This document shows positions 12,783-47,160 of a stretch of 64,000 nucleotides of DNA, piece by piece. Source of the DNA: an uncultured delta proteobacterium (GTDB lineage Bacteria; Desulfobacterota; Binatia; UBA9968); NCBI GenBank assembly GCA_963737905.1, contig CAVTUQ010000013.1:1-64000 (forward strand), read 5' to 3'. The notes beneath the pieces were generated by a model that worked only from the letters and a program-made list of their open reading frames with translations, was not told the DNA's origin and ran no database searches. The position numbers were made by a program, and so were the translations under genes. How positions within the stretch are numbered: position 1 is the stretch's first letter; every line of letters begins with the position of its first letter.

Positions 12783-12804
12783 GAATTTCTCCAGTGCTTT
12801 ATGA

Positions 12805-12860
12805 TTTCGAGTTCCGAGTTTTGCGTTTCGAGTTAAACCCGAAACCCGAGACGCGAAACT
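12805..12860. repeat. Palindromic heptamer repeat cluster
   Basis: tttcgag-ttccgag-ttttgcg-tttcgag-tt / aaacccg-aaacccg-agacgcg-aaact. Confidence 0.75.
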
Positions 12861-12880
12861 CAATACAAGCTTGTCGGAAA

Positions 12881-13855: not shown

Positions 13856-13888
13856 AGGCCCTCCTTCTTTCGGTTCAATCGTTTATAC

Positions 13889-15061
13889 TTATAAATAGTG
13901 TTGACCGTCGAGGTGAAAAAACTTGACGGCATTGCCAGCCAACATCCGGCGTTTCTCGTCCTGGGGCACCCCGGCCATCTGCTCCTCCATGACCTGTAGA
14001 GAATTAGGCCAGCGAGTGACGATGTGGGGGAAGTCCGTCGACCACATGATTCTGTCCACGCCTACATAGTGGCGCAGCTGGACTCCGATGGGGTCGTCGA
14101 AAAAACCCCAATGCGCGTGCTCCTTCAAATACTCGCTTGGAAGATGCGACAGCCGTTTGAGTCCCAACAGCCGCTCCGCCCACGAGCAGCTGACTTTATA
14201 CGCCTGATCCATCTGCTGGTAAAAGTAAGGGATCCAACCGATGTTGTTCTCGGCCCAATAGATTTGCAGCTTCAGGAATCTGTCAAAGACACCGCTCAAG
14301 ATCAGTTGCACCGCTTCAATCGCTCCGCAGTGATGGATGCCGTGGCGCGCGACGCGCTCGACGAAATCCATGGGCCTTTCCTCTCCTTCCGGCTCCTGCG
14401 GATACTTCATTAGAAAAACATCTCGCCCGCGGTACTGCTTCGGGAATGACGTGTGAATCGTGAGCGGCATATCGAGATCGATCGCCGCCGCCCAAAACTT
14501 ATCGTCTTCAGGGGTCGGATAGTCTTTACCGCTCGGGAACGTATGAAGGCGAACCGCCTTGAACCCTTTTTCCTTGCAGCGTTTCATTTCCGCGATGTCT
14601 TCTTCGACGCCGATATTGGGAAGCACGGCAACTCCCACGAGCCGGTCCGGAGCAACCCTGCAGTACTCCTCGATAAAGTAATCATTAAAGCCGCGTAGAA
14701 TCCCTAGAAAGGTGCTTTTGTCTTTGATCGCGGTATTACGGGCTTCCGTAGCAAATATCAGCTCCGCGTCGATGCCGTCTGCGTCCTGTTCTTTTAGCCT
14801 CTGCTCGGGCGAACCCGCGCCGATAGCGTTGTCAAAATCGAGCTCGACCGGGCTGAACTCTTCCACAGACTTGCCGGCGAACTGGTTGGTTCCTCTAAAA
14901 GTAATGCCGCACGCCTCTTCAACGATGATATCCTTGCCATTGGGCAATTTCAGACGGCGCGGAGCGCGATCTCGGTATTGCTTCGGAACACGATGAACCC
15001 ACCTATCCGGAGCTGACTCAAAATGGCTATCGGCGGAAAAAAACTGATACGTTCGGGCCAA
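13889..15061 (-). CDS. Amidohydrolase_2 family protein (possible decarboxylase/hydratase)
   Basis: SADSHFE, QDADGIDAE, LTIHT, VFDRF and IMWSTDFPH motifs; TTG start with GGAGG RBS. Confidence 0.88.
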   Translation of the reverse strand: MARTYQFFSADSHFESAPDRWVHRVPKQYRDRAPRRLKLPNGKDIIVEEACGITFRGTNQFAGKSVEEFSPVELDFDNAIGAGSPEQRLKEQDADGIDAELIFATEARNTAIKDKSTFLGILRGFNDYFIEEYCRVAPDRLVGVAVLPNIGVEEDIAEMKRCKEKGFKAVRLHTFPSGKDYPTPEDDKFWAAAIDLDMPLTIHTSFPKQYRGRDVFLMKYPQEPEGEERPMDFVERVARHGIHHCGAIEAVQLILSGVFDRFLKLQIYWAENNIGWIPYFYQQMDQAYKVSCSWAERLLGLKRLSHLPSEYLKEHAHWGFFDDPIGVQLRHYVGVDRIMWSTDFPHIVTRWPNSLQVMEEQMAGVPQDEKRRMLAGNAVKFFHLDGQHYL

Positions 15062-15312
15062 TGACGCAATCCTCCACTGCCCAAGCGCTGCTGATCTGAA
15101 TTGCGCGCGCAGATTACGGATTCTCTTGTCTTTATTCCGGCTGCCACTCGGTGTCAATCGCTACGAAAAGATCATTGCGCGGTCGTTGCAAAACCGGAGC
15201 GTTCCCGTGTGAATCCGCTTGCGCTGCCGTGGACGAAGATAATAAACTCACCCATCGCCTTTAAAGTTTGGATTTGGTGGATATTTATCACGCTGTTGAA
15301 AAACCCTGATTC

Positions 15313-15437
15313 CAGGCTGTTCAAAAAGGTCCAGATGCGAGGCGCGCGAAGAGTCGACGAGCGGAGGCGTATTTGGTGATACGTTGGAGCGAGGCGATTG
15401 AGCGCAACGAAGCAGGTGGGCCTTTTTCAACAGTCTG
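15313..15437. mobile_element. MITE-like element with IS-type terminal inverted repeats
   Basis: CAGGCTGTTCAAAAAGG ... CCTTTTTCAACAGTCTG; a further partial end, GCTGTTGAAAAACC, at about 15292. Confidence 0.7.
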
Positions 15438-15464
15438 TCATGATTCGACAAAAGGAGCACAAGT

Positions 15465-16481
15465 ATGAGCAAACCAGCGATCGATCACCGCGACCGACTC
15501 GATGCATTGAATGGCAAGCTCAGCAATTTGGACATGCGCGGATATTGGCAACTCCGACACGATGCCGACCGCATGGAACCAAAGCTCTGGCGCTGGGTGG
15601 ATATTTATCCCGCGCTCATGGAAACGGCGGACGTCGTGCGAATAGGCGCCGACGCATTCCGGCGCAACGTGGGTCTGCAAACGGGCAGCCGGACGATTAG
15701 CATGGGATTTCAGATCGTGCTCCCCGGTGAAGCAGCGCCCCCCCATCGCCACACCAACACGGCGTTGCGCTTCGTCATCAAAGGAGGAGGAGCCTACACG
15801 ACCTCCAACGGCGAGCCCATGATCATGAATCCGGGAGATCTGCTGATCCAGCCGAACTGGGCATGGCACGACCATGTCAATCATTCAAACGAGCCGATCA
15901 TTTGGATCGACGCCCTTGATAGCGGCTTGGTCAATTTCTTAAATGGTTCGTTTCGGGAAGAATGGTCGGAAGGAATAAACCAGCCGCTGACGAAAAAAGA
16001 CGGAGCTTCACGACGCCTATATGGTCCGGTGCGCCAGCCGGCAGTCCAATCCGAATCGGCTGGAGTTCCCTACCATTATAAGTGGGGAGAGACCCTCGAA
16101 GCGTTGCAAGAACTCACTGAACAAGGAATACACGATCCCTACGACGGCGTTCTCTTGGAATACAAGAACCCGATCAACGGCGGTCCCACGTTTTTGACCA
16201 TGACCTGCCACTTGCAGATGCTCCTGCCGGGACAAGAAACCCGTTTTCATCGCCACACGGGAACAACTCTGTATCACACGGTCCAGGGACACGGAGCGAC
16301 TGTGCTCGATCAAGACAAATCGATTGAGCTGGTGTGGGACGAACACGACAGTTTCAGCCTCCCTTCATGGCGCTGGCACAAGCATCGCAATCGGTCCGCA
16401 ACTGAACCTGCCATCCTTTTCTCTTTGACCGATCGACCGATCCTGCAGATGACAGGATTGGATAGGGAGGAACGAGGATAA
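15465..16481 (+). CDS. Bicupin dioxygenase, gentisate 1,2-dioxygenase family
   Basis: QIVLPGEAAPPHRHT..LRF, WAWHDH, DPYDGVLLEYKNP and a second HRHT..WHKH. Confidence 0.88.
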   Translation: MSKPAIDHRDRLDALNGKLSNLDMRGYWQLRHDADRMEPKLWRWVDIYPALMETADVVRIGADAFRRNVGLQTGSRTISMGFQIVLPGEAAPPHRHTNTALRFVIKGGGAYTTSNGEPMIMNPGDLLIQPNWAWHDHVNHSNEPIIWIDALDSGLVNFLNGSFREEWSEGINQPLTKKDGASRRLYGPVRQPAVQSESAGVPYHYKWGETLEALQELTEQGIHDPYDGVLLEYKNPINGGPTFLTMTCHLQMLLPGQETRFHRHTGTTLYHTVQGHGATVLDQDKSIELVWDEHDSFSLPSWRWHKHRNRSATEPAILFSLTDRPILQMTGLDREERG

Positions 16482-16592
16482 CGCGGCCTAATTTGTCGCA
16501 CAACTTGAATGATTAAACATCTTGACGTGTAAACGATTTACACTGTGAAGTGGACTGTTCGAAGAGTCCAGGCAGTCCATATCGCGCTTGCG

Positions 16593-18365
16593 CTATTGGC
16601 CCAGTGTTTTGCCTATCCATTTTCGACCGGCGATCACGAAAATCAAATTGAAGGTGATGAGGACGACCAACATCGCCGCGGAACTATTGAAGCGGCCGCC
16701 AACGAACGCCTCATAGATAATATTGGCCACCACGACACTACCAGCAGAAGCCAATAGCAGTGCCACAGAAAAATCCTTCGCGGCATGGACCAGCACCCAG
16801 AGCCAGCCGTTCAAGAACGCCGGAGCCAGCAAGCGCAGCGTAATCCGGCAAAACGTCTGAAAGTTGCTAGCCCCGCTGGTATGCGATACTTCCTCCAGCT
16901 CTTTGTGAATTTGCAGAATCGCTGAGTGCATCAAGCGGGTGCCAAAGGCCAGGTAGCGAGCAATGAAAGCGAGCATCAAGAGTATCAGTGTGCCATGGAT
17001 CGGTGTGCCGACGAACATGAGAAAGAGCGCCAACGACGATATGATCCCGGGGATCGCGAGCGGCATGAAGGCAACGAAGTTGATCATTTTACTGAGCGGC
17101 GAAGGATTTCGCGCCACCAGCCAGCCGATGAAACTTACCAACATCATCGTCAGCGTCGCCGCTCCCACCGCCACGATGAGAGTATTCAAGAGGTAGCTAC
17201 CGAAGAAACGGTAGTCGAACAGTCGCTGGTAGTTGAGCGAGGTCCAGTTCATATCGGCAAAGGACTCTCGCACCGGCGGGACGTAGAATCGAAGGAAACT
17301 CGCATACAGCAAAACCGCGAACGGCAAAACGACTTTCACCAGGATAAAAAGGCAAATGGCGCTGAGGGCGATATATCTCCAAAAGCCAAGTTCGATCACT
17401 TTGGGACGATAACCCTTGCCAGTAACCACGGCATAGTCCGACGCTTGACGCACGAGATGATGATAAAGCCATGTGCCAGCGATTCCCATCACTAATCCAA
17501 GCATGCCGAAGGCCGCTGGGATCCCGTAATTTACTCCCATGTCGGAGGTCGGCACGAGGCTGAAGAAAATCTTTGTCGACAACACGTCGATCCCGGCCGT
17601 CGGACCCAAGGCTAGCGGCAATTCCAACGCCTCGAGCCCGGTAAGAAAAAAATAGATGGCCACCGCCGCCACCCCCGGACGCATCAGCGGCGCTGTAACG
17701 GTCTTCAACACTCGCCAGCGGCCCGCGCCGGCAACGGCGGCCGCCTCCTCCAGAATCGGGTCCATCCGCCGGAGCACCGCGGTGAGAAATAGCCACATGG
17801 TCGGCACCATTCCCAGAACGTGGACGAAAATGAGACCCTCAAGGCTATAGATGTTAAACGGCCCCTCCGCCGCATCGCTTCCCGTGAACGAACGCAAATA
17901 GACGTTCAGAGTGCCCCCGCGCGGCCCGAGGAGAAGGACCCAGCCAAGAGCCGTGGCAAAGACCGGCGTGCTCATCGGAATGAACATGAGCACGTACATC
18001 GCGTTGCGCAGCGGCATATCCGTTCGCTCCGTGAGAAAAGCGAACGCGAAGGCAATGGGCAGAGCAAAGAGAACGCCCAGCCCGGCGTAAGTGAGTGTGT
18101 TGCGAATGATGGGCAACCAGTCGGCGCCACCGAAGGCGTGAACATAAGGCGCAATCGTGTACGCCCCGGGGGCCAGCGGCAGGACACCGGCCGGTCGAAC
18201 GCTGGCAAGAACCATAAAGATCAAGGGAACAACGACCAGGACAGCGAGCACGACGAGCACCAAGACAGAACCGCCGAGCCGGAACTCGAACCATCGAAAT
18301 GGAGATAGTGGGAGGCGGTGTCGGACGGCGTGGGTTATGAAAACTCCCTGCCTGGACTCCATCAC
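16593..18365 (-). CDS. ABC permease, FbpB/ThiP-like (two fused TM domains)
   Basis: MDPILEEAA and IHKELEEVS EAA loops; TGKGYRP linker. Confidence 0.9.
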   Translation of the reverse strand: MMESRQGVFITHAVRHRLPLSPFRWFEFRLGGSVLVLVVLAVLVVVPLIFMVLASVRPAGVLPLAPGAYTIAPYVHAFGGADWLPIIRNTLTYAGLGVLFALPIAFAFAFLTERTDMPLRNAMYVLMFIPMSTPVFATALGWVLLLGPRGGTLNVYLRSFTGSDAAEGPFNIYSLEGLIFVHVLGMVPTMWLFLTAVLRRMDPILEEAAAVAGAGRWRVLKTVTAPLMRPGVAAVAIYFFLTGLEALELPLALGPTAGIDVLSTKIFFSLVPTSDMGVNYGIPAAFGMLGLVMGIAGTWLYHHLVRQASDYAVVTGKGYRPKVIELGFWRYIALSAICLFILVKVVLPFAVLLYASFLRFYVPPVRESFADMNWTSLNYQRLFDYRFFGSYLLNTLIVAVGAATLTMMLVSFIGWLVARNPSPLSKMINFVAFMPLAIPGIISSLALFLMFVGTPIHGTLILLMLAFIARYLAFGTRLMHSAILQIHKELEEVSHTSGASNFQTFCRITLRLLAPAFLNGWLWVLVHAAKDFSVALLLASAGSVVVANIIYEAFVGGRFNSSAAMLVVLITFNLIFVIAGRKWIGKTLGQ

Positions 18366-18392
18366 TCCTCCGCCGAAAATAATACGCGACCG

Positions 18393-19550
18393 TTATCGAG
18401 ATAATTTTTTCTTGCTGGCTACGCCGGCCTTCAGGGCCTCGATCGCGATCTTGCGGTACTCGCCAGACTTCTCAGCGTCTTCTTCAGTCTTGGGACCGAC
18501 CACCTGATCCGGCGAGGTGATACCCTGCTGGCGGACCAATTTGGTTAGCGGGAGATACTTTTCCTCTTCTTCGTAAAGACGGAGCACCGCTCCTCCAGTC
18601 ATTTTGGCTTCAAGATAAGTGCCGTCAAAGATATCCCATGCCCAAAATAACGCCGCCATGTTCGGATCATTGACGCTGGGCTTGGTGAGGCAAGCGACGG
18701 TCACATTTCCCATGATAAACTCTGCGAAGCCGATCTCGACCGGAGCTCCCAAGGTTTTCTGTTGCGCCACCCAGTTCATCGCCGCAAGCCCGATATCGCC
18801 TTCGCCTTGGACCAGCGCTTGGAGCACATTGAAACTTCCGCCGGCAACTAGCTTGGCCCCGTTGGCGCCAAGGTTGTGGGACAAGATGCGCATCCGTTCC
18901 ACGTCCCAGCCGGGCGCGAACGGCAAGGTGTACAAGCCAAGCGCTTGCGCGTCCCAAACAACTCGGTTGCGCCATTTGTCGGTCGTCAAGTCTTCTAACT
19001 TGAGGCCCTTCACTTCACCGGGCTTCACCTTCCGCGTATTGTACACAAGCGACCAACTGGTCGTCCCCATATTCATGCAGTGATCGCTCAGCACGCTACC
19101 GTCGGGACCGCCTCCGATATTGGGAACTCCCGCCCGCAGCTTGCGCGCCAAAGGCCAACCCTCGTAGATCGCCTCCCACGGCGGCCGGCGCGTATTTCCC
19201 GCTCGGAACATGCCGAGAATCAGAGGAGTTCCGCCATTCCACATATCGATAACTGCACGGCCACTTTTGGCCGATTCGACTACTTTGAGTGGCATGTCAC
19301 GGTGATGCCCCGGTTGCGATTCTATTTTCACTGGGAAGCCGAATTTTTTCTGAAAAGTTGCTTCCTTCGCCCTTACAATCTCCGCGTCTGTCCCTTCCAA
19401 AGCTACCGTGACCGTGTGATTCGATTCTTTGGCCTTAGCGATCAGCTCTTTCAATGTTCGCGGTGCCGGCGCTTCCGCGGCGGAAGAAGCACTTAAGGTC
19501 GCTAACAAGAACCAAAGGACGCTTCCATTGACCAATTTTTTTTCTCTCAT
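18393..19550 (-). CDS. ABC substrate-binding protein (AfuA/FbpA-like fold)
   Basis: Signal peptide; YNTRKVKP, EDLTTDKWRNR, GEGDIG and GAPVE; directly upstream of the permease. Confidence 0.8.
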   Translation of the reverse strand: MREKKLVNGSVLWFLLATLSASSAAEAPAPRTLKELIAKAKESNHTVTVALEGTDAEIVRAKEATFQKKFGFPVKIESQPGHHRDMPLKVVESAKSGRAVIDMWNGGTPLILGMFRAGNTRRPPWEAIYEGWPLARKLRAGVPNIGGGPDGSVLSDHCMNMGTTSWSLVYNTRKVKPGEVKGLKLEDLTTDKWRNRVVWDAQALGLYTLPFAPGWDVERMRILSHNLGANGAKLVAGGSFNVLQALVQGEGDIGLAAMNWVAQQKTLGAPVEIGFAEFIMGNVTVACLTKPSVNDPNMAALFWAWDIFDGTYLEAKMTGGAVLRLYEEEEKYLPLTKLVRQQGITSPDQVVGPKTEEDAEKSGEYRKIAIEALKAGVASKKKLSR

Positions 19551-19641
19551 TCGACTAACTCCTCGAGTTACGTTTGTCGGTTTCTAGCCGGTCGTCTGAA
19601 GTTAACCCGAAACCAGAGACCCGAGACTGGCGGCCATCCGG

Positions 19642-20853
19642 TTACTGTCCGACGGCTTGCGCCTGAGTTGCGCGGCCATGAGCGTCAAGATCGGCAGCAG
19701 CGTCGAGCTGGAAAAATCGAATCGCATTGCCGGCCACCATGGCGTAGCCTTCCTCCTCTGTCACCTTGACAAACGTCTCGTTGATGACCTTCTGTGAATT
19801 CGGCCAATCACCGGTGGCATGAGCAAAATCGCTGCCCCACAGCAAGATGTCCACGCCGATCTCACGCCGGCATTTCACTCCCCACGGGTCACGCATGAAA
19901 CCCCACAGGCAGTTCTCTTTAAGATACTCGCTCGGGCGCTTCGCGGGAGCTTTGAAGCCGAAGTCGCGCTCGCCCCAGTAACGATTGCGCTCATGGTTGT
20001 CATCGATCTGGTCGAAGCTGTAGGGCAGCCAACCCGCCTGGCTCTCGGCCCAGTAAATTTTGAGGTCGGGGAAGCGATCGAAAACTCCCGCCATCGCCAT
20101 TTGCAAGGGAGCGAAGGGTTGCTCCCCGGCGAATCGGAACATCAACGACAGCGGGTCTCGATCGGCCTTCTCTCTCGGCATATGGGGATACTGGAAAATG
20201 GGTCCCTTAGTGCCCATACGTGTCGTTCCGCCAAAGGTATGCGAGCAGACCGGCACGTTCATCGCCAAAGCGGCTTCCCAAAACTTGTCATCTTCCGAGG
20301 TAACGTAAGATTTCCCGCTCGGAAACCGGTGCAGGTTGACTCCTTTGAGCCCGATCTTGAGGCAGTATTCCATCTCAGCGATGGCATCGTCCACTCCGGT
20401 ATCCGGAATGATTCCCATGGCAAGGAGGCGAACCGGATTGTAGGCGCAATATTCTTCGGCGAGCCATTCGTTGTAGGCGCGGATCATCGCCCGGTAGGCT
20501 TCATCGTCGGAAATACCATGCCAGTACACCGGATACGAACCGTGCGTAAACATGACTTCGGCGTCCACTCCGTCCTGGTCTTGTTCCCAGAGGCGTTGCT
20601 CCGGGCCGCCCGTGCCCGGCCCCTCGAACCAATATTTTTGCAGTCCGTGTTGCTCGTAGGGGATGCCGGTGATGGTCGTGGCCCCGGGGCTTCGGGGCGG
20701 ACGGTTTTCCACGATGATGGCCTCGTTGCCGTTGGCAAGAATCACCGTGCGGGGTGCGCGATCGCGCCAGCGCTGGGGCACACGAGGCGTCCAACGTTCT
20801 GGCCGGATGTCCAGGTGGGAATCAGCGGAAATGCACTTGTAGTGCCGCGGCAT
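19642..20853 (-). CDS. Amidohydrolase_2 family protein
   Basis: ISADSH, QDQDGVDAE, VFDRFPDLKIYWAE and WGSDFAH motifs. Confidence 0.88.
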   Translation of the reverse strand: MPRHYKCISADSHLDIRPERWTPRVPQRWRDRAPRTVILANGNEAIIVENRPPRSPGATTITGIPYEQHGLQKYWFEGPGTGGPEQRLWEQDQDGVDAEVMFTHGSYPVYWHGISDDEAYRAMIRAYNEWLAEEYCAYNPVRLLAMGIIPDTGVDDAIAEMEYCLKIGLKGVNLHRFPSGKSYVTSEDDKFWEAALAMNVPVCSHTFGGTTRMGTKGPIFQYPHMPREKADRDPLSLMFRFAGEQPFAPLQMAMAGVFDRFPDLKIYWAESQAGWLPYSFDQIDDNHERNRYWGERDFGFKAPAKRPSEYLKENCLWGFMRDPWGVKCRREIGVDILLWGSDFAHATGDWPNSQKVINETFVKVTEEEGYAMVAGNAIRFFQLDAAADLDAHGRATQAQAVGQ

Positions 20854-20883
20854 GACAGTTCCTCCCCCTCGTTCGCTCAACAC

Positions 20884-20946
20884 GTTCAACAGTTCAACGT
20901 TCCAGGTTCAAGGTATTGTCCCGATTCCACTTTGAACCTTGAACTC
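20884..20946. repeat. Intergenic GTTCAA / TTGAAC inverted short-period repeats
   Basis: gttcaacagttcaacgttccaggttcaagg ... tttgaaccttgaact. Confidence 0.6.
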
Positions 20947-20953
20947 TCATTGG

Positions 20954-22006
20954 CTACTTCTGTTCGCGGTAAAGCCGTATGGCCTGGAGCAATGGACGAT
21001 CGCTCACGGAGAACAAAATGGCGGGCTCCGCCGACGATCGGTTGCTGAAGCGGTGCCATTGCCAGGATGGAATGATAAAGCAATCCCGCTCGCCCCACCC
21101 AAAGTTCTCTTCGCCTCCCTTGTTCTTTCCGATCCCGACGACACCCGAACCGCGCACAACATGATAAATGGTGTTGCTGGTATGGCGATGGCTCTCGGTC
21201 TCTTCGCCGGGACGGAGCATCTGAATGCGGCAACCGAGAGTCTCGGTCGTCGGTCCGCCGGTCAATGGATTGGTATAATCTAGCATCACGCCATCGTAAG
21301 GATCTGCCTGCCCCGCCTCGGCAAGAGCTTCAAGCGTGGCGACAGTCTCTCGCCAGCGGTACTTAACCGGAAATGGACCGGTGCCTTCCAAAGCAACGGT
21401 AGACCGAAGAGAACCCATCCGTGTCATGTAATAGCCGTCCGGTTTTGTGAAAGGCTGCACGGTTCCCTCGGGATACTTCTCGCGAAAGTACGCCTCAACG
21501 AATTCATTAAGCGGGGTATCCATTGACGTCAACCATAAAGCAGGCTCTGTCCCGGTATTCTGGGTGCCGTGCCATGTCCAGCTCGGCTGGATCAAGAGAT
21601 CGCCCGGATCCATGAATTGCTGCTCGCCTTCCGCCGTCGTGAAGGTGCCCTTGCCCTGGATCACGAAATAAAGTGAAGCGGAAGTGTGGCGGTGGGATTC
21701 CGTGATCTCTCCCGGATTGAGGTGTTGGATCGTGACTCCGAAAGTTTTCGCCGTCCCTACCGCAACGGGCTGGGATGGATTGACCAGACGGACGGTCCGC
21801 ATCCGCATGAAATCATCGATGGGAACAATCTCACCGGCTTCGAGTAAACTCGGCAGAAGATCATCCCAACGCCACACCCATGGCCGAACTTCTTGCTTTT
21901 TTTCCTTCGCTTCCTTTTGCCAAGCGCCTCTTAGTGATGCGCCTTTAACCTTGGCGTCAAGAGTTTCCAATCGTTGTTGAAGGTCGGAAGATTCCGCCTT
22001 TGCCAT
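20954..22006 (-). CDS. Bicupin dioxygenase, gentisate 1,2-dioxygenase family (divergent active site)
   Basis: QHLNPGEITESHRHT, WTWHGT, DPYDGVMLDYTNP and a second HRHT..WHRF. Confidence 0.85.
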   Translation of the reverse strand: MAKAESSDLQQRLETLDAKVKGASLRGAWQKEAKEKKQEVRPWVWRWDDLLPSLLEAGEIVPIDDFMRMRTVRLVNPSQPVAVGTAKTFGVTIQHLNPGEITESHRHTSASLYFVIQGKGTFTTAEGEQQFMDPGDLLIQPSWTWHGTQNTGTEPALWLTSMDTPLNEFVEAYFREKYPEGTVQPFTKPDGYYMTRMGSLRSTVALEGTGPFPVKYRWRETVATLEALAEAGQADPYDGVMLDYTNPLTGGPTTETLGCRIQMLRPGEETESHRHTSNTIYHVVRGSGVVGIGKNKGGEENFGWGERDCFIIPSWQWHRFSNRSSAEPAILFSVSDRPLLQAIRLYREQK

Positions 22007-37703: not shown

Positions 37704-38072
37704 TCAGATCTTATCTTTGGCGCGCAATCCTTGGAGGCGTGCCAACATCAGATCTCCGAGATTCTCCGTCGGGAAATGATCTGGAATTGTCATCGGTTCG
37801 GCTCCAAGATTGGCGAGCCGCTCGTTGAGCGCAGCAAGATCAGAGCGTGTTTGCCGATACTCATCCACCTTGGCTCGGCAATTCAGGATGCTCTGGTCAA
37901 TGTGCGCCAAGCAATCCCGCAGAATCGACTTTTGTTGCTCCGACAGACTTCGTAGCCGTTCTACTTCTGCCTGAGCGAACGGCTCCACGGCTGGACGGAC
38001 ACCTCCTTCGATTTGCGCCTGCATACCACCCACCGACCGCATCAGCCTTTCGCAGGCCTGCTGCTCTTTCAT
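37704..38072 (-). CDS. Hypothetical coiled-coil protein
   Basis: GGAAGGA RBS before MKEQQACE; heptad-like LAALNERLANLG; downstream of the HTH gene. Confidence 0.6.
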   Translation of the reverse strand: MKEQQACERLMRSVGGMQAQIEGGVRPAVEPFAQAEVERLRSLSEQQKSILRDCLAHIDQSILNCRAKVDEYRQTRSDLAALNERLANLGAEPMTIPDHFPTENLGDLMLARLQGLRAKDKI

Positions 38073-38248
38073 CAAGTCCTTCCCAAAACCGGTGGCCGCG
38101 CTAGTGCATCTATGGCTAGACGATTGATGAGGAAATAGCATTAAACCAATCGACGGCCTGGGGGCCAGGCACCTTCTGCTGCTAATAAGAAGCAAGCCGT
38201 ACAGTGACAGCATCAATGTACGGCTCCGAGGAATGATATGGATGCAGC

Positions 38249-38862: not shown

Positions 38863-40356
38863 TTAGCCCTTCGTTATATGCGGTCGGGTGTGGCGCGCTT
38901 GCACGGCGGCCAGTTGCTTCTCCCACTTCGCAGAAAAGTGCTTTCGCGTATCGTTGCTTATCTGGCTGACAGCGGGAAATCGATCACGCCATTCGTAGGG
39001 CCGAGTTGCCTCGATGATCATTCGTGAGTTATGGCCCTTCTGGCCGGGAGGAATGATGGGATCGAGGGGGCCGCTCCAGGTACGGCGCAGGATATCAACT
39101 GAGGTGGCGGGATCAGACCTAGTGGCTATCGCCCAGACAACCTCATTTAGATCAGTGATGTCGATGTCCTCGTCTACGACTACCACATACCGGCCCAGGT
39201 AAGCCCCCGCATGACACTGGCAAGCGACTAGCGCAGCCTGTTTGGCATGGCCCGGGTACCGCTGTTTGATCGCCACAACGATCATGAATCGTTGCGCAGG
39301 CGGTGGAAGATACACGCCTCGGATGTCTGGAACGCCGGCTTGCTCCATTCCGTTCCAAACGGTGGCCGCGCGTAAACAGGACCGATACATTCCGTGAATC
39401 GTTGGCTTGAAGGGTGCGGCGCCGCAAATAATAGGATCATTTCGATAATACAGCGCCTTCACTCGCACAAACGGCTCGGCGCGCTGAGCGCTGGCATAAT
39501 AGCCAGGCCATTCGCCAAACGGACCTTCGGGTAACGATTCCCCAGGAATGATTTCTCCCTCGATAGCGATTTCAGCTGTGGCTGGAAATCGGAGCCCGGT
39601 TAAGGGTCCCTCCATTACTTCTATGGGCTGGCCCAGGAGTCCCCCGGTCCAGTCGTATTCGTTAACCCCAAAGGGAACGGCCTGCGACGCTGCGATGAAC
39701 AGCAGCGGATGCTGGCCGAACACCATTGCCACCGGGAAGGGCTTTCCCGCTCGCATCGCTTTCTCATAATGAATTTTGCCGTGCTTGCCGGGAGAGATAT
39801 AAAGACCCACTTTGTCCTTCTCCTGGAGCATCACGCGGTAGCAACCAACGTTTTCCACGCCGGTCTCGGGATCGCGTGTGATCACGAGATGGGCGGTTCC
39901 CAGGTAGCGGCCGCCGTCGCCCTCATGCCAACGCGGGACCGGAAACTTGAGGAGATCAATCTGATCGCCCCGCTCGATATTCTCCATTACAGGACCGGTG
40001 GAAACAATGTTCGGTTTGATCGGTTGAAGCGCCCGCAACTTCGCCCGCAAAGCATCGATCAGAGGAATCGTCTTCAGATCGGTCGGCAGGTTCAAGGTCA
40101 GGGCTGTGCGTTCCAGGGTCTCGAGCATGTTGGCGAGAACGCGGCGATCGGCGGCATATCCGGGAACCGCCTCGAACATGACTGCCGGCGGAGACGGCAG
40201 CCGCTCCAGTATGATTTCCGTCAACGCCCCGATCTCCAAGTCCCAATGAGCACCAGAGATGTGTTCCAATTGTCCCAGCGCTTGCACGCCGTCGAGCCAA
40301 TCGCGAAGGTCACAAGCATTTGCGGCTTCGCGGGTTTTCATTTCTGGCTTTGCCAT
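38863..40356 (-). CDS. UbiD family (prFMN-dependent) decarboxylase
   Basis: LEIGA, DGGRYLGT, NVGCYR, EGPFGEWPGYY, VVDEDID and WAIATR motifs. Confidence 0.93.
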   Translation of the reverse strand: MAKPEMKTREAANACDLRDWLDGVQALGQLEHISGAHWDLEIGALTEIILERLPSPPAVMFEAVPGYAADRRVLANMLETLERTALTLNLPTDLKTIPLIDALRAKLRALQPIKPNIVSTGPVMENIERGDQIDLLKFPVPRWHEGDGGRYLGTAHLVITRDPETGVENVGCYRVMLQEKDKVGLYISPGKHGKIHYEKAMRAGKPFPVAMVFGQHPLLFIAASQAVPFGVNEYDWTGGLLGQPIEVMEGPLTGLRFPATAEIAIEGEIIPGESLPEGPFGEWPGYYASAQRAEPFVRVKALYYRNDPIICGAAPFKPTIHGMYRSCLRAATVWNGMEQAGVPDIRGVYLPPPAQRFMIVVAIKQRYPGHAKQAALVACQCHAGAYLGRYVVVVDEDIDITDLNEVVWAIATRSDPATSVDILRRTWSGPLDPIIPPGQKGHNSRMIIEATRPYEWRDRFPAVSQISNDTRKHFSAKWEKQLAAVQARHTRPHITKG

Positions 40357-40395
40357 ACAGAACCTCCCTCAATCTGGTACAGTCAGCGCAAGATT

Positions 40396-41394
40396 TTAGT
40401 TTTCAACCTCTTCCCGATATAGCTGGAGCCCTTCCATCACAGGTCTATCATTGATGGAAAAGAGAATTGCCTCGTCGTCGGCAAGATTCTCATGAGAATG
40501 CCATTGCCAAAGGGGTACGACGAAAGAATCTCCCTTCTTCCATTCGAGGTGGCCTTCTCCTACCGCAGTTCGACCTCGTCCTTTGAAAACGTGGTAGAGG
40601 GCCGTGCTGGTATGGCGATGCGCCTTGGTTTTCTCGCTGGCTTTGAAGAGCTGAACCTCGCACGACATCGTCGGGTACGTGAATCCAGCCGTGACCGGAT
40701 TGACGTAGCGCAGCAGCGTACCTTCGTAAGGATCACGGTCGCTGTCGCCCATCGTCTTGAGCGCCTTGTAGGTGTTCTTCCAAGCGTAACGAAAGGGAAC
40801 GCCGCGCCGGTAGATTTCATTCTGCTTCGGCGTCCGTGCAAAGCCCAGACGGCTGAGCGATTCACCGGTTTGTCGGGTGATCGGCTGTTCATCCTTTTCG
40901 TAATCCTCGAAGAACAAAACGTTCAAGGACTGGATCAGTGGTCCATCCAGCCCATCTAACCAGATAATCGGGTCTTCGGATTCGTTGTGGTGATCATGCC
41001 AAGTCCAATTGGGCGTGAGGATTAGGTCGCCTTCTTCCATCGGAAACTTTTCGCCGTCGACAGCCGTGTACGCCCCTTTCCCCTGCACGACGAAGCGGAT
41101 CGCCGCCATGTTATGACGGTGCGCCCGCGCCACCTCGCCGGGATTCACGATAGAAAAGGTGAATTGAAGGGTATGAGAAGTCGACTTGAGCGGAAGGTGC
41201 GGACTCACGAGGCGGATGGCGCGTCGTTCCGCCTGTTCGATACCGATCGTCTCGCTTGCCTTCAACAAGCCGTCAAGCAGCGGCTCCCACTTCCAGAGAT
41301 ACGGCGCCTCCGACGAATGCGACGGAACACGCGTCTTCCAGAACCCAGAGAGCTGATTCTTCTCCAATTCGCTGTCGAGCTCCGTAAGCTTCAT
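40396..41394 (-). CDS. Bicupin dioxygenase, gentisate 1,2-dioxygenase family
   Basis: AERRAIRL, PGEVARAHRH..IRF, WTWHDH, WLDGLD and a second HRHT..WHSH. Confidence 0.9.
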   Translation of the reverse strand: MKLTELDSELEKNQLSGFWKTRVPSHSSEAPYLWKWEPLLDGLLKASETIGIEQAERRAIRLVSPHLPLKSTSHTLQFTFSIVNPGEVARAHRHNMAAIRFVVQGKGAYTAVDGEKFPMEEGDLILTPNWTWHDHHNESEDPIIWLDGLDGPLIQSLNVLFFEDYEKDEQPITRQTGESLSRLGFARTPKQNEIYRRGVPFRYAWKNTYKALKTMGDSDRDPYEGTLLRYVNPVTAGFTYPTMSCEVQLFKASEKTKAHRHTSTALYHVFKGRGRTAVGEGHLEWKKGDSFVVPLWQWHSHENLADDEAILFSINDRPVMEGLQLYREEVEN

Positions 41395-41414
41395 CGGCTC
41401 ACCCCTTCTTTGCG

Positions 41415-42122
41415 CTAGACTGCTTTTGACATCGCATGAGCCATCCCGCCAAAATAGGCGCGATGGAGATCCATCGACTCCTTGGCGGTATCGAGAACGT
41501 CTTGTTCTCTACCGGGAGCGACATATCTCTCGAGCACGTCAATAAACATGTCCGAATGTTTCACATCGGCCTTGCTATGCGCCGTAAAATTCGGCATCTG
41601 TTCGTCACGAAAGTTAAGATCCCGGCTCCAGATTTTGTAAAGCCGGGTGCAATTGCCGCCGCCAAGGTCGCCCAATAGCCGGTCGTCGTTGGTCCATTCC
41701 GCAATGGTCGAAGCGGCGATCGCCTCCTGCCACGGCCGATTGCGCGCGATCCAGAACCAACCGTAGATCGCCGCCTTGGTGGTCGGCAGCGGCTCGGCGT
41801 TCAGAACCTCATCTACGCTCAGCCCCAGCTCCTTCCCCTGGCGAAAAATAAGATCCAGATGGCCGGCCTTGGAGTGCTCATCTTCGACCAACTCTTCGTG
41901 CTCATGTTCCATGATGCGTTGTTTGACGTCGAACTCGGGACAATTCGCCGCCACCTGCGGCCAAAAATTTCTCCTTTGACGCACGTAAATGCCCAACTGC
42001 AACAGATAAATCCGCGCCCGCTCCGTGGTCATTTCAATCGAGTAGAAATGTTGCATTTCCGGCGATAGAAACAGGTCCCTTACGCAATCTCCCAATCTTT
42101 GCCGCCATTCCTGCGGTTTCAT
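41415..42122 (-). CDS. Heme-oxygenase-like diiron protein (CADD/PqqC/TenA superfamily)
   Basis: EE....GH, AE and HSKADVKH (HxxxDxxH) ligand pattern; all-helical, 235 aa. Confidence 0.8.
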   Translation of the reverse strand: MKPQEWRQRLGDCVRDLFLSPEMQHFYSIEMTTERARIYLLQLGIYVRQRRNFWPQVAANCPEFDVKQRIMEHEHEELVEDEHSKAGHLDLIFRQGKELGLSVDEVLNAEPLPTTKAAIYGWFWIARNRPWQEAIAASTIAEWTNDDRLLGDLGGGNCTRLYKIWSRDLNFRDEQMPNFTAHSKADVKHSDMFIDVLERYVAPGREQDVLDTAKESMDLHRAYFGGMAHAMSKAV

Positions 42123-42501
42123 TAACTTACCTCCCCGATTCTCGGCGTCACCATAATGACGTAATCAAAAATTCTCACGCCTTACTATCTTAATTACTTT
42201 GCGTTGTACAAATAAATTGTCTTCATTTAGCAGTAGCCGATCCCTCAAACCGTTGTCAAGGAGGGTTTGAAGCCGTCGGCTTGGGGAAAAGTATTGTCGA
42301 GTATTCAGCGAAAGCGGCGGATCAAGCTCGTCTCGACTCCCCCCGGAACTAATTAATTTTGCATAGCATACACCTTTAGTCTTGACTAGAGTCGCACTTA
42401 AAAGTAAAAGACCCACTAGAGTTAGGTCTAAAGTCGTATATATGGAGAAGACTTTCCAGCGACGAACCTGGTTTGCAACTGTCGGCATCCAGCTTGGTAA
42501 A

Positions 42502-43947
42502 ATGAGCCGGCCTCAACTCATTTACACAGGGCTGCTCCTGGGCCTCCTTTGCCCTTTAATTTGGGGCGGCTGTAGCCTCCAACAGCCGCCCCAAGAGCAG
42601 CAAATTGGGAACCTGGGTTACTTCGAGTTTCGGGCTCCCGACAATCGCATGAAAGGTGTCATCGTCGGAGCGGCCCGCGGAGTTACCGAACCCGGCTCGG
42701 CAGAATACGCAAGATTGATCAGCAAACGAACCGGCGCCGGTTTTCTCATCGCTTCCGGATTCGCGTCAAAGCGACTGGCGGTTACGCAGCCGCTGGTGCG
42801 CGTGTCTGCGCTGGTGTCTAACGATCCTCTCGACCGAGGAAGTATCTACCGAGAGTTCAAAACTCTACTTCGACAAACCGCCGACGGCAATGTCAAATTA
42901 TATATCGGAGTGCGTTCCGCTGCGCAGGCAGACGCCGTGGATCGAATCGAGGTCGCCACCAGTGGCTTCACGTTTGAGCAACTCGCAATCTTAAAGGAGT
43001 CTTTTACTCGCATCAGAGATGAGGCATTGTCCGGCAGTTCGATACCAAAAATCGCCATCGCCGTGGAACCGTTGGAGAAAATCTCTTGGCGTGTTTCGGG
43101 AGTGAAACATCACGGCGTGCTTATGTTTGCGGAGCGGGGGCTCAATCTTCGCCTTCCTGAAAGCTTGTCCGCAGCGGCGGCCGAATCTTCTTATGTGAAA
43201 ATCCTTTCGGCTTGGATCGCCGAAATTCTCACGCTCCTCGAAGACGATGCTTCCCAACGTGATATCGGCGTCAAGCTGATGGATTACGGCAGAATTGAAT
43301 CCATCCCGTCCAGGAAGCACCAAAATGGCGTTGTCATCGCCGCGCCGCATGGGACTTTTGACGAGCACACGGCCGAACTGGTGAACCAGGTGAGCTATCG
43401 AACGGGCCTCGCAGCTGTTATCGCGCTCGGGTTTACTCCCACCGAGTGCGCAGGATGGCGTATCAACGTCAATCGCCCCACTGAGCGGCTCTATCCCTCG
43501 GATAATATCGAAATCCGTTCCCAGCGGGCGCAAGAAGTCTATCACGCCTTCAAACAAAGTGTCTTGGAAGCTTCACGTGGCAGCCTAAACTTATACGTCG
43601 ACATCCACCAGAACGGTCGGCAAAACAACATTGAAGTCGCAACCATGGGAATTTCCAGGGAAGAAGCCCAGTTCATCAAAAAGATCTATCGCGAAGCCCG
43701 GGATCGGCTCCTCAAGCTTGCGCCGGGAGTAACATCCGTAGATCTGATGATCGAACCCGTCGACAATATCGAAATTGGTGCCTGGGCCGCCAAAGCTCAA
43801 GGTATCTTGGGTTTAGCGCAAAAAAGTCTCCACTTTGAATTTCCTCTTTATAATACGTTGGGATCATCCAAAGCTCGCGAAAGCTATACGGAGATAGTCG
43901 GAGTTGTCTTGGACCAGATCGTTCCAACCTTGCTCGGTGAGAAATAG
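42502..43947 (+). CDS. Putative lipoprotein with two tandem Zn-hydrolase-like domains
   Basis: Hydrophobic leader ending WGGC; internal duplication; second copy has APHG..DEHT, NRP and DIH. Confidence 0.6.
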   Translation: MSRPQLIYTGLLLGLLCPLIWGGCSLQQPPQEQQIGNLGYFEFRAPDNRMKGVIVGAARGVTEPGSAEYARLISKRTGAGFLIASGFASKRLAVTQPLVRVSALVSNDPLDRGSIYREFKTLLRQTADGNVKLYIGVRSAAQADAVDRIEVATSGFTFEQLAILKESFTRIRDEALSGSSIPKIAIAVEPLEKISWRVSGVKHHGVLMFAERGLNLRLPESLSAAAAESSYVKILSAWIAEILTLLEDDASQRDIGVKLMDYGRIESIPSRKHQNGVVIAAPHGTFDEHTAELVNQVSYRTGLAAVIALGFTPTECAGWRINVNRPTERLYPSDNIEIRSQRAQEVYHAFKQSVLEASRGSLNLYVDIHQNGRQNNIEVATMGISREEAQFIKKIYREARDRLLKLAPGVTSVDLMIEPVDNIEIGAWAAKAQGILGLAQKSLHFEFPLYNTLGSSKARESYTEIVGVVLDQIVPTLLGEK

Positions 43948-44025: not shown

Positions 44026-44071
44026 TGGCAGCAACAGAGACCTGAATCGCGTGGTTCTTGGGATTTTGCTT

Positions 44072-45433
44072 ATGCCCAGAGTCCTTGTTATCGAAACGAG
44101 CGATGCGGCGCGGACATTAATTGAAAGCCGATTTGACGGTCGTCTATCCATCGAATCCACGACTACCGTAAAAGCAGGCTTAGACACCCACCAACGAAAT
44201 CCATTCCAGCTAGTCGTCTGGGACACAGTCTCCAGCCCGTCCGAGTGTGTTAATCCTGTTCAGACCCTAAAGAAATTTCTCAAGTGCCATCTTGATACCA
44301 GAATGATCATCCTTTCTGATATCACGGAGCCCAAGACCGTTAGTGTGTGCAGTCTTCCATGCGAATGGCTCCAGCAACCGGTAGATGAGACGGAATTTTT
44401 GGCGCTTGTCGAAGCGGCGCTTCACCGCAACTGTATAGCCGATGGAAGTCGATCCGCGAACATGGAATCGCCCGTCTCGACAAAGTTTGAAGGCATATTG
44501 GCCATTACGCTTACCATGCGACCGGTGCTTCAGCACATCATGAAAGCCGCCGCCGAAGATATTCCTCTCTTGATCAGCGGAGAAACGGGTACGGGCAAGG
44601 ATCTGGTGGCCGCCGCGATCCACAAAAGAAGCAGGCGGAAGCACTTTCCTTACGTGCCCGTCAACATGGGTGCGATTGCGTCTGAGCTTATCGCCAGTGA
44701 GCTGTTTGGCCACGAGAGAGGCGCCTATACAGGCGCCTCCGAATCACGCCCGGGATTGTTTGAACAGGCGCAAGGTGGAACGATCTTGCTCGATGAGATC
44801 ACGACTATTGATGAGAAAACCCAAGTTAGCCTGCTGCGGGTTTTGGAAACCAAAACCGTGCGCCGCGTGGGTGGAGAAAAGGACTTACACGTTGATGTAC
44901 GGGTCATTGCCGCGACGAATGAAAACATCGAGCAAGCAGTCGAGGCCGGGCGCTTTCGAGAGGACCTCTATTATCGCCTCGACGTCTTTCGCATCCACCT
45001 GCCACCGCTACGCGAACGTCAGGGCGCTATCTCGTTACTCACGGATCATTTCGTGGCCCGCTTTGCGGAATCGTATAAGAGAAATATCCGGTTAGTTTCC
45101 CGCGAGACCTACCGATTGATGCGACGCTATCCTTGGCCCGGCAACGTAAGAGAATTAAAGAACGTCATTCAGCGCGCGGTTTTGTTAGCGAAAGGCACCG
45201 AGCTTACACCCGACCTTCTTCCGCAACGTCTAAAGGATGTTGATGACTGTGGGGCCACAAAGTCCACCAAGCAATCCCCTATTCGTCTAGGAATGAGCCT
45301 TGGGGAGGTGGAAAAAGAATATCTTAAGATGACCCTTGCCCATATCAACGGAAACAAGATGAAAGCCGCCTCGATTTTGGGCATCAGCCGCCGTGCGCTG
45401 TATAACAAACTGAAGAGATTCGAAATCCTGTAG
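44072..45433 (+). CDS. sigma54-dependent activator (atypical REC-AAA+-Fis HTH)
   Basis: GETGTGKD, SELFGHERGAYTGA, LDEI, FREDLYYRL, WPGNVREL and LGISRRALY motifs. Confidence 0.93.
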   Translation: MPRVLVIETSDAARTLIESRFDGRLSIESTTTVKAGLDTHQRNPFQLVVWDTVSSPSECVNPVQTLKKFLKCHLDTRMIILSDITEPKTVSVCSLPCEWLQQPVDETEFLALVEAALHRNCIADGSRSANMESPVSTKFEGILAITLTMRPVLQHIMKAAAEDIPLLISGETGTGKDLVAAAIHKRSRRKHFPYVPVNMGAIASELIASELFGHERGAYTGASESRPGLFEQAQGGTILLDEITTIDEKTQVSLLRVLETKTVRRVGGEKDLHVDVRVIAATNENIEQAVEAGRFREDLYYRLDVFRIHLPPLRERQGAISLLTDHFVARFAESYKRNIRLVSRETYRLMRRYPWPGNVRELKNVIQRAVLLAKGTELTPDLLPQRLKDVDDCGATKSTKQSPIRLGMSLGEVEKEYLKMTLAHINGNKMKAASILGISRRALYNKLKRFEIL

Positions 45434-45801
45434 CATGTAAAATTTGCCGATGAGCTGCGAGTTTTTCTTCTCGGTAATAGTGCGTCGGCAACTAAACCGA
45501 CAGGAATCTTGATATATCTGCACGCTGAATTTCCAGTATATCGTGTTTAATCCAAAAGCCACAGATGCATAGTCAGAAGATCTGAAAGCGCCTATTCGGG
45601 GCCCGACCCTACATCCTCGGCTGTTGATGACCCCGGTCTCGCCCTACGGGTCCCACCCGTATCGCCCTAGAGTGCGGTGAAGTGCAGCTTGTGTATGTAT
45701 GCTGGCGCAAAAGAAACGGCGGCAGCAAGGCTCTTGCAGAGGCGCCGAGACTCGTACTAAGTTCCGCCTGCGAGATTCGACGCGCCGGGGGGCCAGACAA
45801 G

Positions 45802-47160
45802 ATGACCCAAATCCTCGTCATAGAAAAGCGCGGAGAGATCCGGAGAATGGTCGAGAGTCGCTTTGGCGCTCGACTGGTGGTTGAGTCTGCTCCGACTTTC
45901 ACAACCGCTCGCGAACGCATCGCCCTCGAGCCTTTCGAGATCATTATTTGGGAATTAAGGAGTCCAACGGCGAATGCCAAATTTGCCGAACGTTTTCAGA
46001 AGCTTTCCCGGGAATACCCAACGACCAAACTGGTGGTCGTTTCCGATCAAGACGAACCGGACTTCACCTCGCGTGCAAATATGGGGTGTGAATGGGTTCG
46101 TCAGCCGTTTACCGAGGGCGAACTAGTCGCCGCCATCGAAATATCCCTTGGGCCCAAGATACCACCGCATCAGAGGTTCTCGCCGGGTACGGAAATTGAA
46201 ATACCGATCGAGTTCGATGGGATTCTGGCCGTCAGTCTTGCGATGCGATCCGTGCTTCAACAGGTCACCGAAGCGGCTGCCGAAGATATTCCCGTTTTGA
46301 TCACGGGTGAGACCGGCACCGGGAAGGATCTCGTGGCTGCCGCTATTCACAAGAGAAGCAAACGAAAAAACTCGCCCTTTCTAGCGGTCAATATGGGAGC
46401 CATTGCCTCAGAGCTCGTCGCCAGTGAGCTGTTCGGCCATGAGAAGGGAGCCTTCACCGGAGCCACCGAGGCGCGCGCCGGTTTCTTTGAGCAGGCTCAA
46501 GGTGGAACGATTTTCCTTGATGAGATCACGACGATGGATGAGAAAACCCAGGTCAGCCTGCTGCGAGTTTTGGAAGCGCACACCATTCGTCGAGTGCGGG
46601 GCGAGAGAGATATAAAGGTCAATGTGCGGGTGCTGGCGGCAACAAACCAAGATGTCGAGCAATCGGTAAAAGAACAGCGTTTTCGTGAGGATCTCTATTA
46701 TCGCCTCGATGTCTTTCGCATTCACATTCCGCCGCTGCGGGACCGGCGTGGGGGTGTTTCGTTGTTAACGGATCATTTTGTCTCCCGCTTCGATGACCTT
46801 TATAAGAAGGACGTCCGCGTTGTATCGCCTCATACTTATCGTTTGCTGAGGCGTTATCCCTGGCCTGGCAACGTTCGCGAGCTGAAGAATGTGATTCAGC
46901 GCGCCGTGTTGTTGGCAAAAAGCGCCGAGCTAACTCCCGATCTGCTTCCACCGCGGATTCGAGAGGCTGACGCCTCGAGTACGGCGGAGGCTTCAAGCCA
47001 GACCCCGATTCAAGTAGGAATGCCGCTCGCAGAGATCGAAAAGGAATTCATAAAAATGACCCTCGCGTCAGTAAGCGGCAACAAGATGAAAGCTGCTTCG
47101 ACACTCGGTATTAGCCGACGCGCATTATACAACAAGTTAAAAAGATACGGTCTGCTTTGA
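45802..47160 (+). CDS. sigma54-dependent activator (atypical REC-AAA+-Fis HTH), paralog of the preceding gene
   Basis: GETGTGKD, GAFTGA, FLDEI, WPGNVREL and Fis HTH motifs. Confidence 0.93.
   Translation: MTQILVIEKRGEIRRMVESRFGARLVVESAPTFTTARERIALEPFEIIIWELRSPTANAKFAERFQKLSREYPTTKLVVVSDQDEPDFTSRANMGCEWVRQPFTEGELVAAIEISLGPKIPPHQRFSPGTEIEIPIEFDGILAVSLAMRSVLQQVTEAAAEDIPVLITGETGTGKDLVAAAIHKRSKRKNSPFLAVNMGAIASELVASELFGHEKGAFTGATEARAGFFEQAQGGTIFLDEITTMDEKTQVSLLRVLEAHTIRRVRGERDIKVNVRVLAATNQDVEQSVKEQRFREDLYYRLDVFRIHIPPLRDRRGGVSLLTDHFVSRFDDLYKKDVRVVSPHTYRLLRRYPWPGNVRELKNVIQRAVLLAKSAELTPDLLPPRIREADASSTAEASSQTPIQVGMPLAEIEKEFIKMTLASVSGNKMKAASTLGISRRALYNKLKRYGLL

Follow-up and report, generated by a model that had tools for sequence, protein, structure and literature searches.

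We analysed a 64,000-nucleotide stretch of DNA from an uncultured member of Candidatus Binatia (GenBank assembly GCA_963737905.1, contig CAVTUQ010000013.1, positions 1 to 64,000; hereafter the window), which is contig C13 of a genome, G000, of 6.7 Mb and 87% completeness. Three genes on its minus strand encode a protein with the fold of the heme-oxygenase-like diiron oxidases (HDO), a bicupin of the gentisate/salicylate 1,2-dioxygenase type and a UbiD-family (de)carboxylase dependent on prenylated flavin mononucleotide (prFMN) (Table 1). The genes are 20 and 39 bp apart, and each start is preceded by a purine-rich run resembling a ribosome-binding site (GGAGG, AAGGGGTG and GGAGG), an arrangement already described in a first-pass annotation made from the sequence alone. 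An independent 4.7-kb contig from a public soil run, 98% alike, covers all three genes with identical junctions, so the trio is not an assembly artefact. Contigs from an RNA library (run X8) bridge both gene junctions, which by itself does not establish expression or co-transcription. Promoter and terminator scans gave scores no higher than those of shuffled sequence.

Table 1. Positions of the operon genes and associated features in the window.
Feature	Position	Strand	Basis
Gene for HDO-fold protein, 235 aa	41415..42122	minus	Pfam/NCBIfam, structure model, fold search, tree, metal ligands
Gene for gentisate/salicylate-1,2-dioxygenase-like bicupin, 332 aa	40396..41394	minus	Profile scores, alignments
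39-bp spacer, read as the scar of a clean deletion of a gene for a 334-aa 4,5-dihydroxyphthalate-decarboxylase-like protein	40357..40395	minus	
Gene for UbiD-family prFMN (de)carboxylase, 497 aa	38863..40356	minus	Profiles, ortholog alignment, 7PDA
Gene for 170-aa protein without known family	37704..38216	minus	Recurring neighbour

The HDO protein matched PF14518 (53.8 bits) and PF03070 (41.8 bits), both above cut-off. A confident structure model (predicted local distance difference test score, pLDDT, 93.5) has the seven-helix heme-oxygenase-like fold. The fold search gave two tied best matches, SSO2700 (Z 23.7, root-mean-square deviation 3.0, 229 residues aligned) and CADD (Z 23.1, deviation 2.3, 207 residues aligned, 17% identity), with BesC, HrmI, TenA and FlcD at Z 20–21. 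The metal ligands proposed in the first-pass annotation, E77, H88, E142, H182, D186 and H189, were unchanged in all of 167 ortholog sequences (from fetched loci that are partly shared between collections), were conserved position by position in 40–45 of the 45 members of a wider alignment, and were in register with those of CADD in a profile alignment. They follow the E-H-E-H-D/E-H motif given for HDOs in the accessible part of PMC11363339. The protein thus has both the fold (Z 20–24 to CADD, BesC, HrmI and FlcD) and the ligand set of the superfamily, and shares its Pfam match, motif and fold with the 3His/3carboxylate class represented by UndA, BesC, HrmI, AetD and RohS (PF14518). In a quick tree of 67 proteins, which contained no CADD sequence, the orthologs formed one clade (support 100) that falls within a larger group of uncharacterised proteins and is separate from the reference PqqC and TenA sequences.

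Within the superfamily, assignment to the known neighbouring families was tried and rejected. The 4-aminobenzoate synthases CADD and NePabS (PDB 1RCW, 8VA9, 9PJ4) have the same fold and ligands, but the HDO protein scored 33.8 against a cut-off of 200 for TIGR04305, and no folate genes were found among the recurring neighbours of the operon. The residues that CADD sacrifices, Tyr27 and Lys152 in the available text of PMC11965152 and PMC9522330, align with Met23 (157/167 orthologs; Leu in the other 10) and Leu161 (167/167). Tyrosines near those of CADD had been taken to leave a self-sacrificing role open; the invariant Tyr27, which accompanies invariant Tyr39 and Tyr46, does lie nearby, but it sits four residues, one helical turn, past Met23, and such a role is now unlikely. 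The CADD cut-off was reached by 0 of 23 HDO paralogs scanned. For PqqC (TIGR02111) the score was 17.2 against a cut-off of 240; PqqC carries Gly at the His88 position in the alignment, and the HDO protein has its metal ligands and stands apart from PqqC in the tree. TenA thiaminase II has a catalytic Cys instead of a metal site; its profile, TIGR04306, gave no match, and a true TenA is encoded elsewhere (G000:C37:70845-71516, 165 bits against a cut-off of 130). The 235-residue protein is therefore an HDO-fold protein in a clade of its own, and is neither CADD, PqqC nor TenA. Its best sequence match (E 7e-11) is SSO2700, a Sulfolobus TENA/THI-4 domain protein (PDB 4LQX), which has Glu opposite His182, is longer through an extra N-terminal part, and whose entry title names no function.

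Arg48, Arg50, Arg51, His220 and Arg221 are also invariant in the orthologs, and Arg50 corresponds in the alignment to a position on the inner face of a CADD helix, from which we infer a putative carboxylate-binding pocket. A protein atlas search returned only unnamed PF14518/PF03070 clusters, and the wider HDO alignment matched no protein of 528–2000 aa among 7992 candidates scored, which is weak evidence against fusions. No plasmid homologs were found for the HDO or for one distant relative, and two other relatives matched only PqqC-like plasmid genes. Distant relatives carry the labels Chloroflexota, Acidimicrobiales or Alphaproteobacteria. Databases often label HDO relatives as 'PqqC', an automatic name that misleads metabolic reconstructions.

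The second protein, in which Cupin_2 matched twice, corresponds to the class III gentisate-type bicupins. Its three-histidine Fe(II) site (His92/His94/His133) and the equivalents of Arg83, Arg127, His162 and Asp174 (R58, R100, H135 and Asp147) are retained in 120/120 orthologs, and are shared with the gentisate, salicylate and 1-hydroxy-2-naphthoate 1,2-dioxygenases (PDB 2D40, 3BU7, 2PHD). The pocket differs from theirs at three positions. The serine pointed out in the first-pass annotation, Ser81, indeed aligns with the substrate-binding Gln108 and is present in 120/120 orthologs, whereas Gln occupies the site in 19 of 20 other aligned bicupins, the exception being a very divergent paralog; the aromatic residue at position 104 is replaced by Gln77 (Gln or Leu in orthologs) and position 106 by Thr79 (Thr or Ser). 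Gentisate 1,2-dioxygenase proper (GtdA) was rejected on the score for TIGR02272 (298 against 442 bits) and on Ser81 and Gln/Leu77. The cupin also scored below the MabB cut-off, and its clade is separate from reference GtdA and from cupins of polycyclic aromatic hydrocarbon clusters. For salicylate dioxygenase, the accessible text of PMC10306065 and PMC4019311 describes binding of the substrate carboxylate by Gln108 and Arg83, and of the 5-hydroxyl by Trp104/Asp174. As the Arg83 and Asp174 equivalents are kept and Gln108 is lost, the residues point to a substrate that is still likely to be of the salicylate type, gentisate itself being less likely.

The third protein contains three UbiD domains, passes the TIGR00148 cut-off (294.8 against 244.85 bits) and retains Arg174, Glu277, Glu282, Asn169 and His192 in 86/86 orthologs; the numbering R174/E277/E282 presumably parallels that of Fdc1. 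Its closest solved structure by a wide margin is 7PDA (E 1e-111, against 1e-58 for the next). This entry is titled 'UbiD family decarboxylase', and we take it to be PhdA, phenazine-1-carboxylate decarboxylase. The R159/E269 spacing in the available part of PMC10850782 fits that identity. The substrate does not follow from closeness to PhdA, because the genome has many UbiDs of similar distance. The PhdA operon further includes ubiX and the maturase gene phdC, in the accessible text of PMC13040415, and neither is part of the Binatia operon. A ubiX gene elsewhere in the genome, sought as the source of prFMN, was found once, on contig C8 (G000:C8:221274).

To assess conservation, the whole genomes of the order, 123 in all, were searched at identities of at least 70% (HDO), 62% (cupin) and 67% (UbiD), with weaker paralog matches left out; the tally may lack HDO fragments at the ends of contigs. 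The HDO was found in 91 genomes, the cupin in 81, the UbiD in 74 and all three in 68. The trio withstands the conservation check set by the first-pass annotation: the genes stand together on one strand in 63 of these 68 genomes and are split over contigs in the remaining 5. The HDO and cupin genes are adjacent in 72 of the 75 genomes holding both. Linkage of the trio persists down to 62–71% identity, and the core order is constant while the flanking genes vary widely. Outside the order, 204 genomes sampled from the class gave 0 matches to an HDO profile (E 1e-25), and thus no cultured host was found.

The trio in the window is a shortened form of this order-wide operon, which usually has a fourth gene. 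Of the 57 loci from genomes, 48 extended 3.5 kb or more downstream, and a gene termed X here lies between the cupin and UbiD genes in 42 of these. The layouts were cupin-X-UbiD (23), cupin-second UbiD-X-UbiD (18), cupin-UbiD (5), cupin-second UbiD-X (1) and cupin only (1). X encodes a homolog of 4,5-dihydroxyphthalate decarboxylase, full-length to 9JP7 (E 1.5e-44, the only PDB match), and its family, with a binding-protein fold, has 27 paralogs in G000. Both same-genus genomes retain X, and no X ortholog was found in G000 at E 1e-90. The 39-bp spacer of the window joins the left (post-cupin) spacer to the right (pre-UbiD) spacer of the closest relative, so X was cleanly deleted here. In 8 of 67 pairs the cupin and UbiD genes are direct neighbours, from which it follows that X is dispensable or is replaced by one of the 27 paralogs. 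The tight trio of the first-pass annotation was correctly seen, although the usual module has four genes.

At the other end of the operon, deeper branches carry a fifth gene. In family f3, 20 of 21 loci have an aldolase of the dihydrodipicolinate synthase (DHDPS) type immediately before the HDO, the remaining locus having no upstream DNA, and the same holds for one f1 and one f2 locus, which suggests an ancestral operon aldolase-HDO-cupin-X-UbiD. The fourth and fifth genes of the relatives strengthen the aromatic catabolic context. In f3 loci (e.g. L032:3198-4785), the stretch before the aldolase-HDO block often holds genes for a CmcJ/NvfI-family oxidoreductase, a RidA-like protein and a TctC binding protein. 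At the downstream end, in 41 loci fetched from the family to which the window belongs, the 170-aa protein gene trails the UbiD gene by about 600 bp, and the protein has a paralog on contig C25; it is probably a linked neighbour, and its membership in the pathway is putative.

The partner families are numerous in the genome, and the pairing was therefore judged against base rates. G000 has 29 matches to PF14518, 44 to UbiD, 34 to Rieske proteins and 302 to NMT1-like proteins, together with 12 close and 34 total gentisate-dioxygenase-like bicupins. A profile search found no Rieske matches on the window's contig, and no flavin monooxygenase families were found among 30 further window open reading frames scanned. 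The absence that the first-pass annotation had noted is thus real, but with 34 Rieske matches in the genome the argument drawn from it is weak. When a partner was defined as a bicupin, UbiD or X-family gene on the same strand within 1.5 kb, 9 of 23 HDO clusters in G000 had one (8/22 without the focal cluster). Compared with this 8/22 by Fisher tests, Rieske clusters had partners at a similar rate (5/17, p 0.74), and NMT1 (24/224, p 0.003) and amidohydrolase clusters (7/100, p 0.001) less often; the rates were 1/8 for aldolase clusters and 160/4227 for all genes. In G000, HDO genes adjoin such partners as often as Rieske oxygenases do. Sister HDO clades (30–33% identity) adjoin other cupins, UbiDs, X-family genes, aldolases or an FAH hydrolase. 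Such neighbours were present in 7 of 18 paralog loci fetched from other genomes (L200–L203, L207, L209 and L210); L204 and L217 had only a distant UbiD, and the other 9 had no member of the cupin, UbiD or X families.

We consider it probable that the operon, conserved across one order of Candidatus Binatia, is catabolic and serves the breakdown of a carboxylated (hetero)aromatic acid with oxygen. Within it the HDO is predicted, with a confidence somewhat short of even, to be the ring-activating diiron oxygenase. A more speculative extension is that HDO-type diiron enzymes, with about 30 paralogs per genome in one Binatia order, might form a further class of ring-activating oxygenases that replace Rieske and flavin oxygenases and work without a linked reductase, this operon being the most conserved example. 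In the proposed route, the UbiD (supplied with prFMN through the single unlinked ubiX) and the dihydroxyphthalate-decarboxylase-like protein would strip surplus carboxyl groups. The HDO would hold the acid through the invariant Arg50/Arg51/Arg221, and its peroxo-diiron species would set a hydroxyl beside a carboxyl, either hydroxylating the ring or decarboxylating the acid oxidatively; the substrate or an unlinked donor would provide the electrons. The cupin would then cleave the resulting salicylate-type compound between the carbon that bears the carboxyl and the one that bears the hydroxyl, the altered pocket suggesting a substrate other than gentisate, and the aldolase would split a 2-oxo-acid product into pyruvate and an aldehyde.

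Several observations weigh against this reading. In genus g18, 12 of 12 genomes keep an HDO ortholog (73–78%) with no cupin or UbiD alongside, mostly between housekeeping genes for a heptosyltransferase and a cyclophilin. None of the 12 genomes yielded an orthologous UbiD or X, and the only cupins, in 2/12, were paralogous. The g18 copies nest in the ortholog clade and are under purifying selection (dN/dS about 0.06–0.12, 6 pairs). Eight fetched second HDO copies likewise have no operon partners, and the second copy in G000 itself (C1:109587-110298, locus L138; 80–85% identical) has a frameshift near residue 128, its partners being absent. An HDO kept apart from its partners has a use outside the operon, or works with other paralogs in trans, and the first-pass suggestion that it supplies the ring-activating oxidation stays a prediction. 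Of the other HDO clusters in G000, 14/22 have no partner within 1.5 kb. No ferredoxin or reductase gene was found in the operon in any locus mapped, and ring activation in trans could come from the genome's 34 Rieske matches. According to the available text of PMC13108848, the HDOs characterised so far are biosynthetic, mostly with fatty or amino acids as substrates, and hydroxylation of an aromatic ring is reported for none. The role given to the arginines is deduced from sequence register with CADD, not from measured contacts. Finally, the genomes are kin, so that the linkage counts show retention and reflect few independent events.

The same observations bear on other explanations. It is rather unlikely, though far from negligible, that the operon is catabolic with the HDO at another step, while unlinked Rieske enzymes activate the ring. 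The HDO might then act on an amino- or aza-aromatic acid, by N-oxidation or oxidative deamination, cleave a C-C bond in a side chain, or oxidise a ring-fission product. Such reactions are known HDO types in the accessible part of PMC13108848; the 34 Rieske matches and the persistence of the HDO alone in g18 fit this view, and the closeness of the UbiD to phenazine-carboxylate decarboxylase, together with the RidA-like gene often upstream in f3, hints at nitrogen in the substrate. However, that RidA match is weak (E 7e-4, under cut-off), the mapped operon copies contain no Rieske genes, and HDO clusters are tied to cupin and decarboxylase genes at the rate of Rieske clusters. An improbable alternative makes the HDO a helper that would activate prFMN by oxidation on behalf of the UbiD, or manage iron or oxygen for the cupin. 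A separate maturase that acts by oxidation, PhdC, can be required by UbiD enzymes, but this has a flavin-reductase fold (both from the available text of PMC13040415). Three other HDO genes of G000 directly precede a UbiD gene, and there are 44 UbiD matches to one ubiX; against this, the HDO is tied more tightly to the cupin (72/75) than to the UbiD, and about 30 diverged paralogs with differing pocket residues fit many substrates better than one cofactor.

That the linkage is merely inherited gene order, with no shared function, in a lineage rich in catabolic paralogs would account for the separated HDO in g18 and is made conceivable by about 30 HDO, 44 UbiD, 34 bicupin and 27 decarboxylase-like genes in one genome. 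We regard it as very improbable, since flanks change freely while the core order stays, and since the pairing recurs in paralogous clades and exceeds that of two catabolic control families. A protein of this fold that lacks metal or acts as a hydrolase, like PqqC or like TenA (hydrolytic deamination of an anthranilate-type to a salicylate-type acid), would agree with the PF03070 match above cut-off, the 'PqqC' labels and the NMT1/THI5-like binding proteins that often adjoin paralogs. The chance of this is slight: the six metal ligands are invariant where PqqC has Gly at the His88 position, the TenA profile does not match and the true TenA is encoded elsewhere, and the NMT1 link is unspecific because the genome has 302 NMT1-like genes. 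A variant self-sacrificing 4-aminobenzoate synthase for folate is also highly improbable. PabB exceeds its cut-off in 0 of 61 genomes of the order, 59 of which have a single chorismate-binding enzyme, folP is present in G000, three tyrosines are invariant and CADD is one of the two best structural matches. Set against these are the Met23/Leu161 substitutions, the score of 33.8 against 200 and the lack of folate genes nearby, and genome G114, 100% complete, has neither PabB nor a match to the HDO profile.

Compared with known systems, a catabolic operon with the HDO as oxygenase has its nearest counterpart in a plasmid cluster of Massilia sp. WG5 (NZ_CP012641.2), which we take to act in phenanthrene breakdown. 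It holds an aldolase, a cupin and a 4,5-dihydroxyphthalate decarboxylase, the same three partner families, but has Rieske oxygenases where the Binatia operon has the HDO, and UbiD occurs only in the latter. A Mycobacterium plasmid similarly combines a ring-hydroxylating dioxygenase, cupin and aldolase, with Rieske enzymes at the place of the HDO. More than 10,000 HDOs are known, of which about a dozen have a validated function; those characterised serve to make natural products or cofactors, with fatty and amino acids as substrates, and none is listed in aromatic catabolism in the accessible text of PMC13108848, whereas the Binatia HDO has a ring-cleavage context. No description of an HDO with a ring-cleaving cupin or UbiD was found in the literature, most subscription journals and supplements being outside the search. 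The operon is an apparently undescribed one of the aerobic aromatic-catabolism type, with an uncharacterised HDO at the place of the oxygenase. If the HDO is indeed a catabolic, ring-activating enzyme, it would extend the chemistry of the fold and open a new way into aromatic degradation. A lineage that is abundant in soil and freshwater and still uncultured would also gain its first concrete pathway; in the available text of its main genome paper (PMC8262859), the words aromatic, gentisate and UbiD have 0 occurrences. The operon is small, soluble-looking and single-copy, so that direct expression and screening are possible.

Some further observations concern the HDO paralogs and the surroundings of the operon. 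A different HDO clade stands directly before a UbiD gene three times (G000:C19:106033-111942 and G000:C15:55371-57666). Tandem HDO paralogs, four intact and one broken, of 44–50% identity, occur with binding proteins and a glyoxalase-fold gene at G000:C19:89055-95529 (L142), and similar arrays are found in relatives. At G000:C34:58058-64220 (L151), an HDO gene is followed by three tandem full-length 4,5-dihydroxyphthalate-decarboxylase-like genes. The frameshifted copy at L138 comes after a gene of the metallo-beta-lactamase fold, and where relatives have an intact second copy, it is often preceded by the gene for an NMT1-like binding protein. As to 4-aminobenzoate supply in the order, no PabB exceeded its cut-off in the 61 genomes, the single chorismate-binding enzyme of G000 is TrpE, and yet folP is present; the loci concerned are G000:C9:70626-72113 and G000:C30:36513-37280. 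Upstream of the operon in the window, a divergent 521-aa open reading frame (42382-43947) has two repeated halves and a lipoprotein-like start, and matched no Pfam or NCBIfam entry; two adjacent paralogous sigma-54 activators are encoded at 44051-47160. Two more gentisate-dioxygenase-like cupins, two amidohydrolases, a DHDPS-family aldolase and ABC transporter parts at 11595-22006 make up further ring-cleavage modules.

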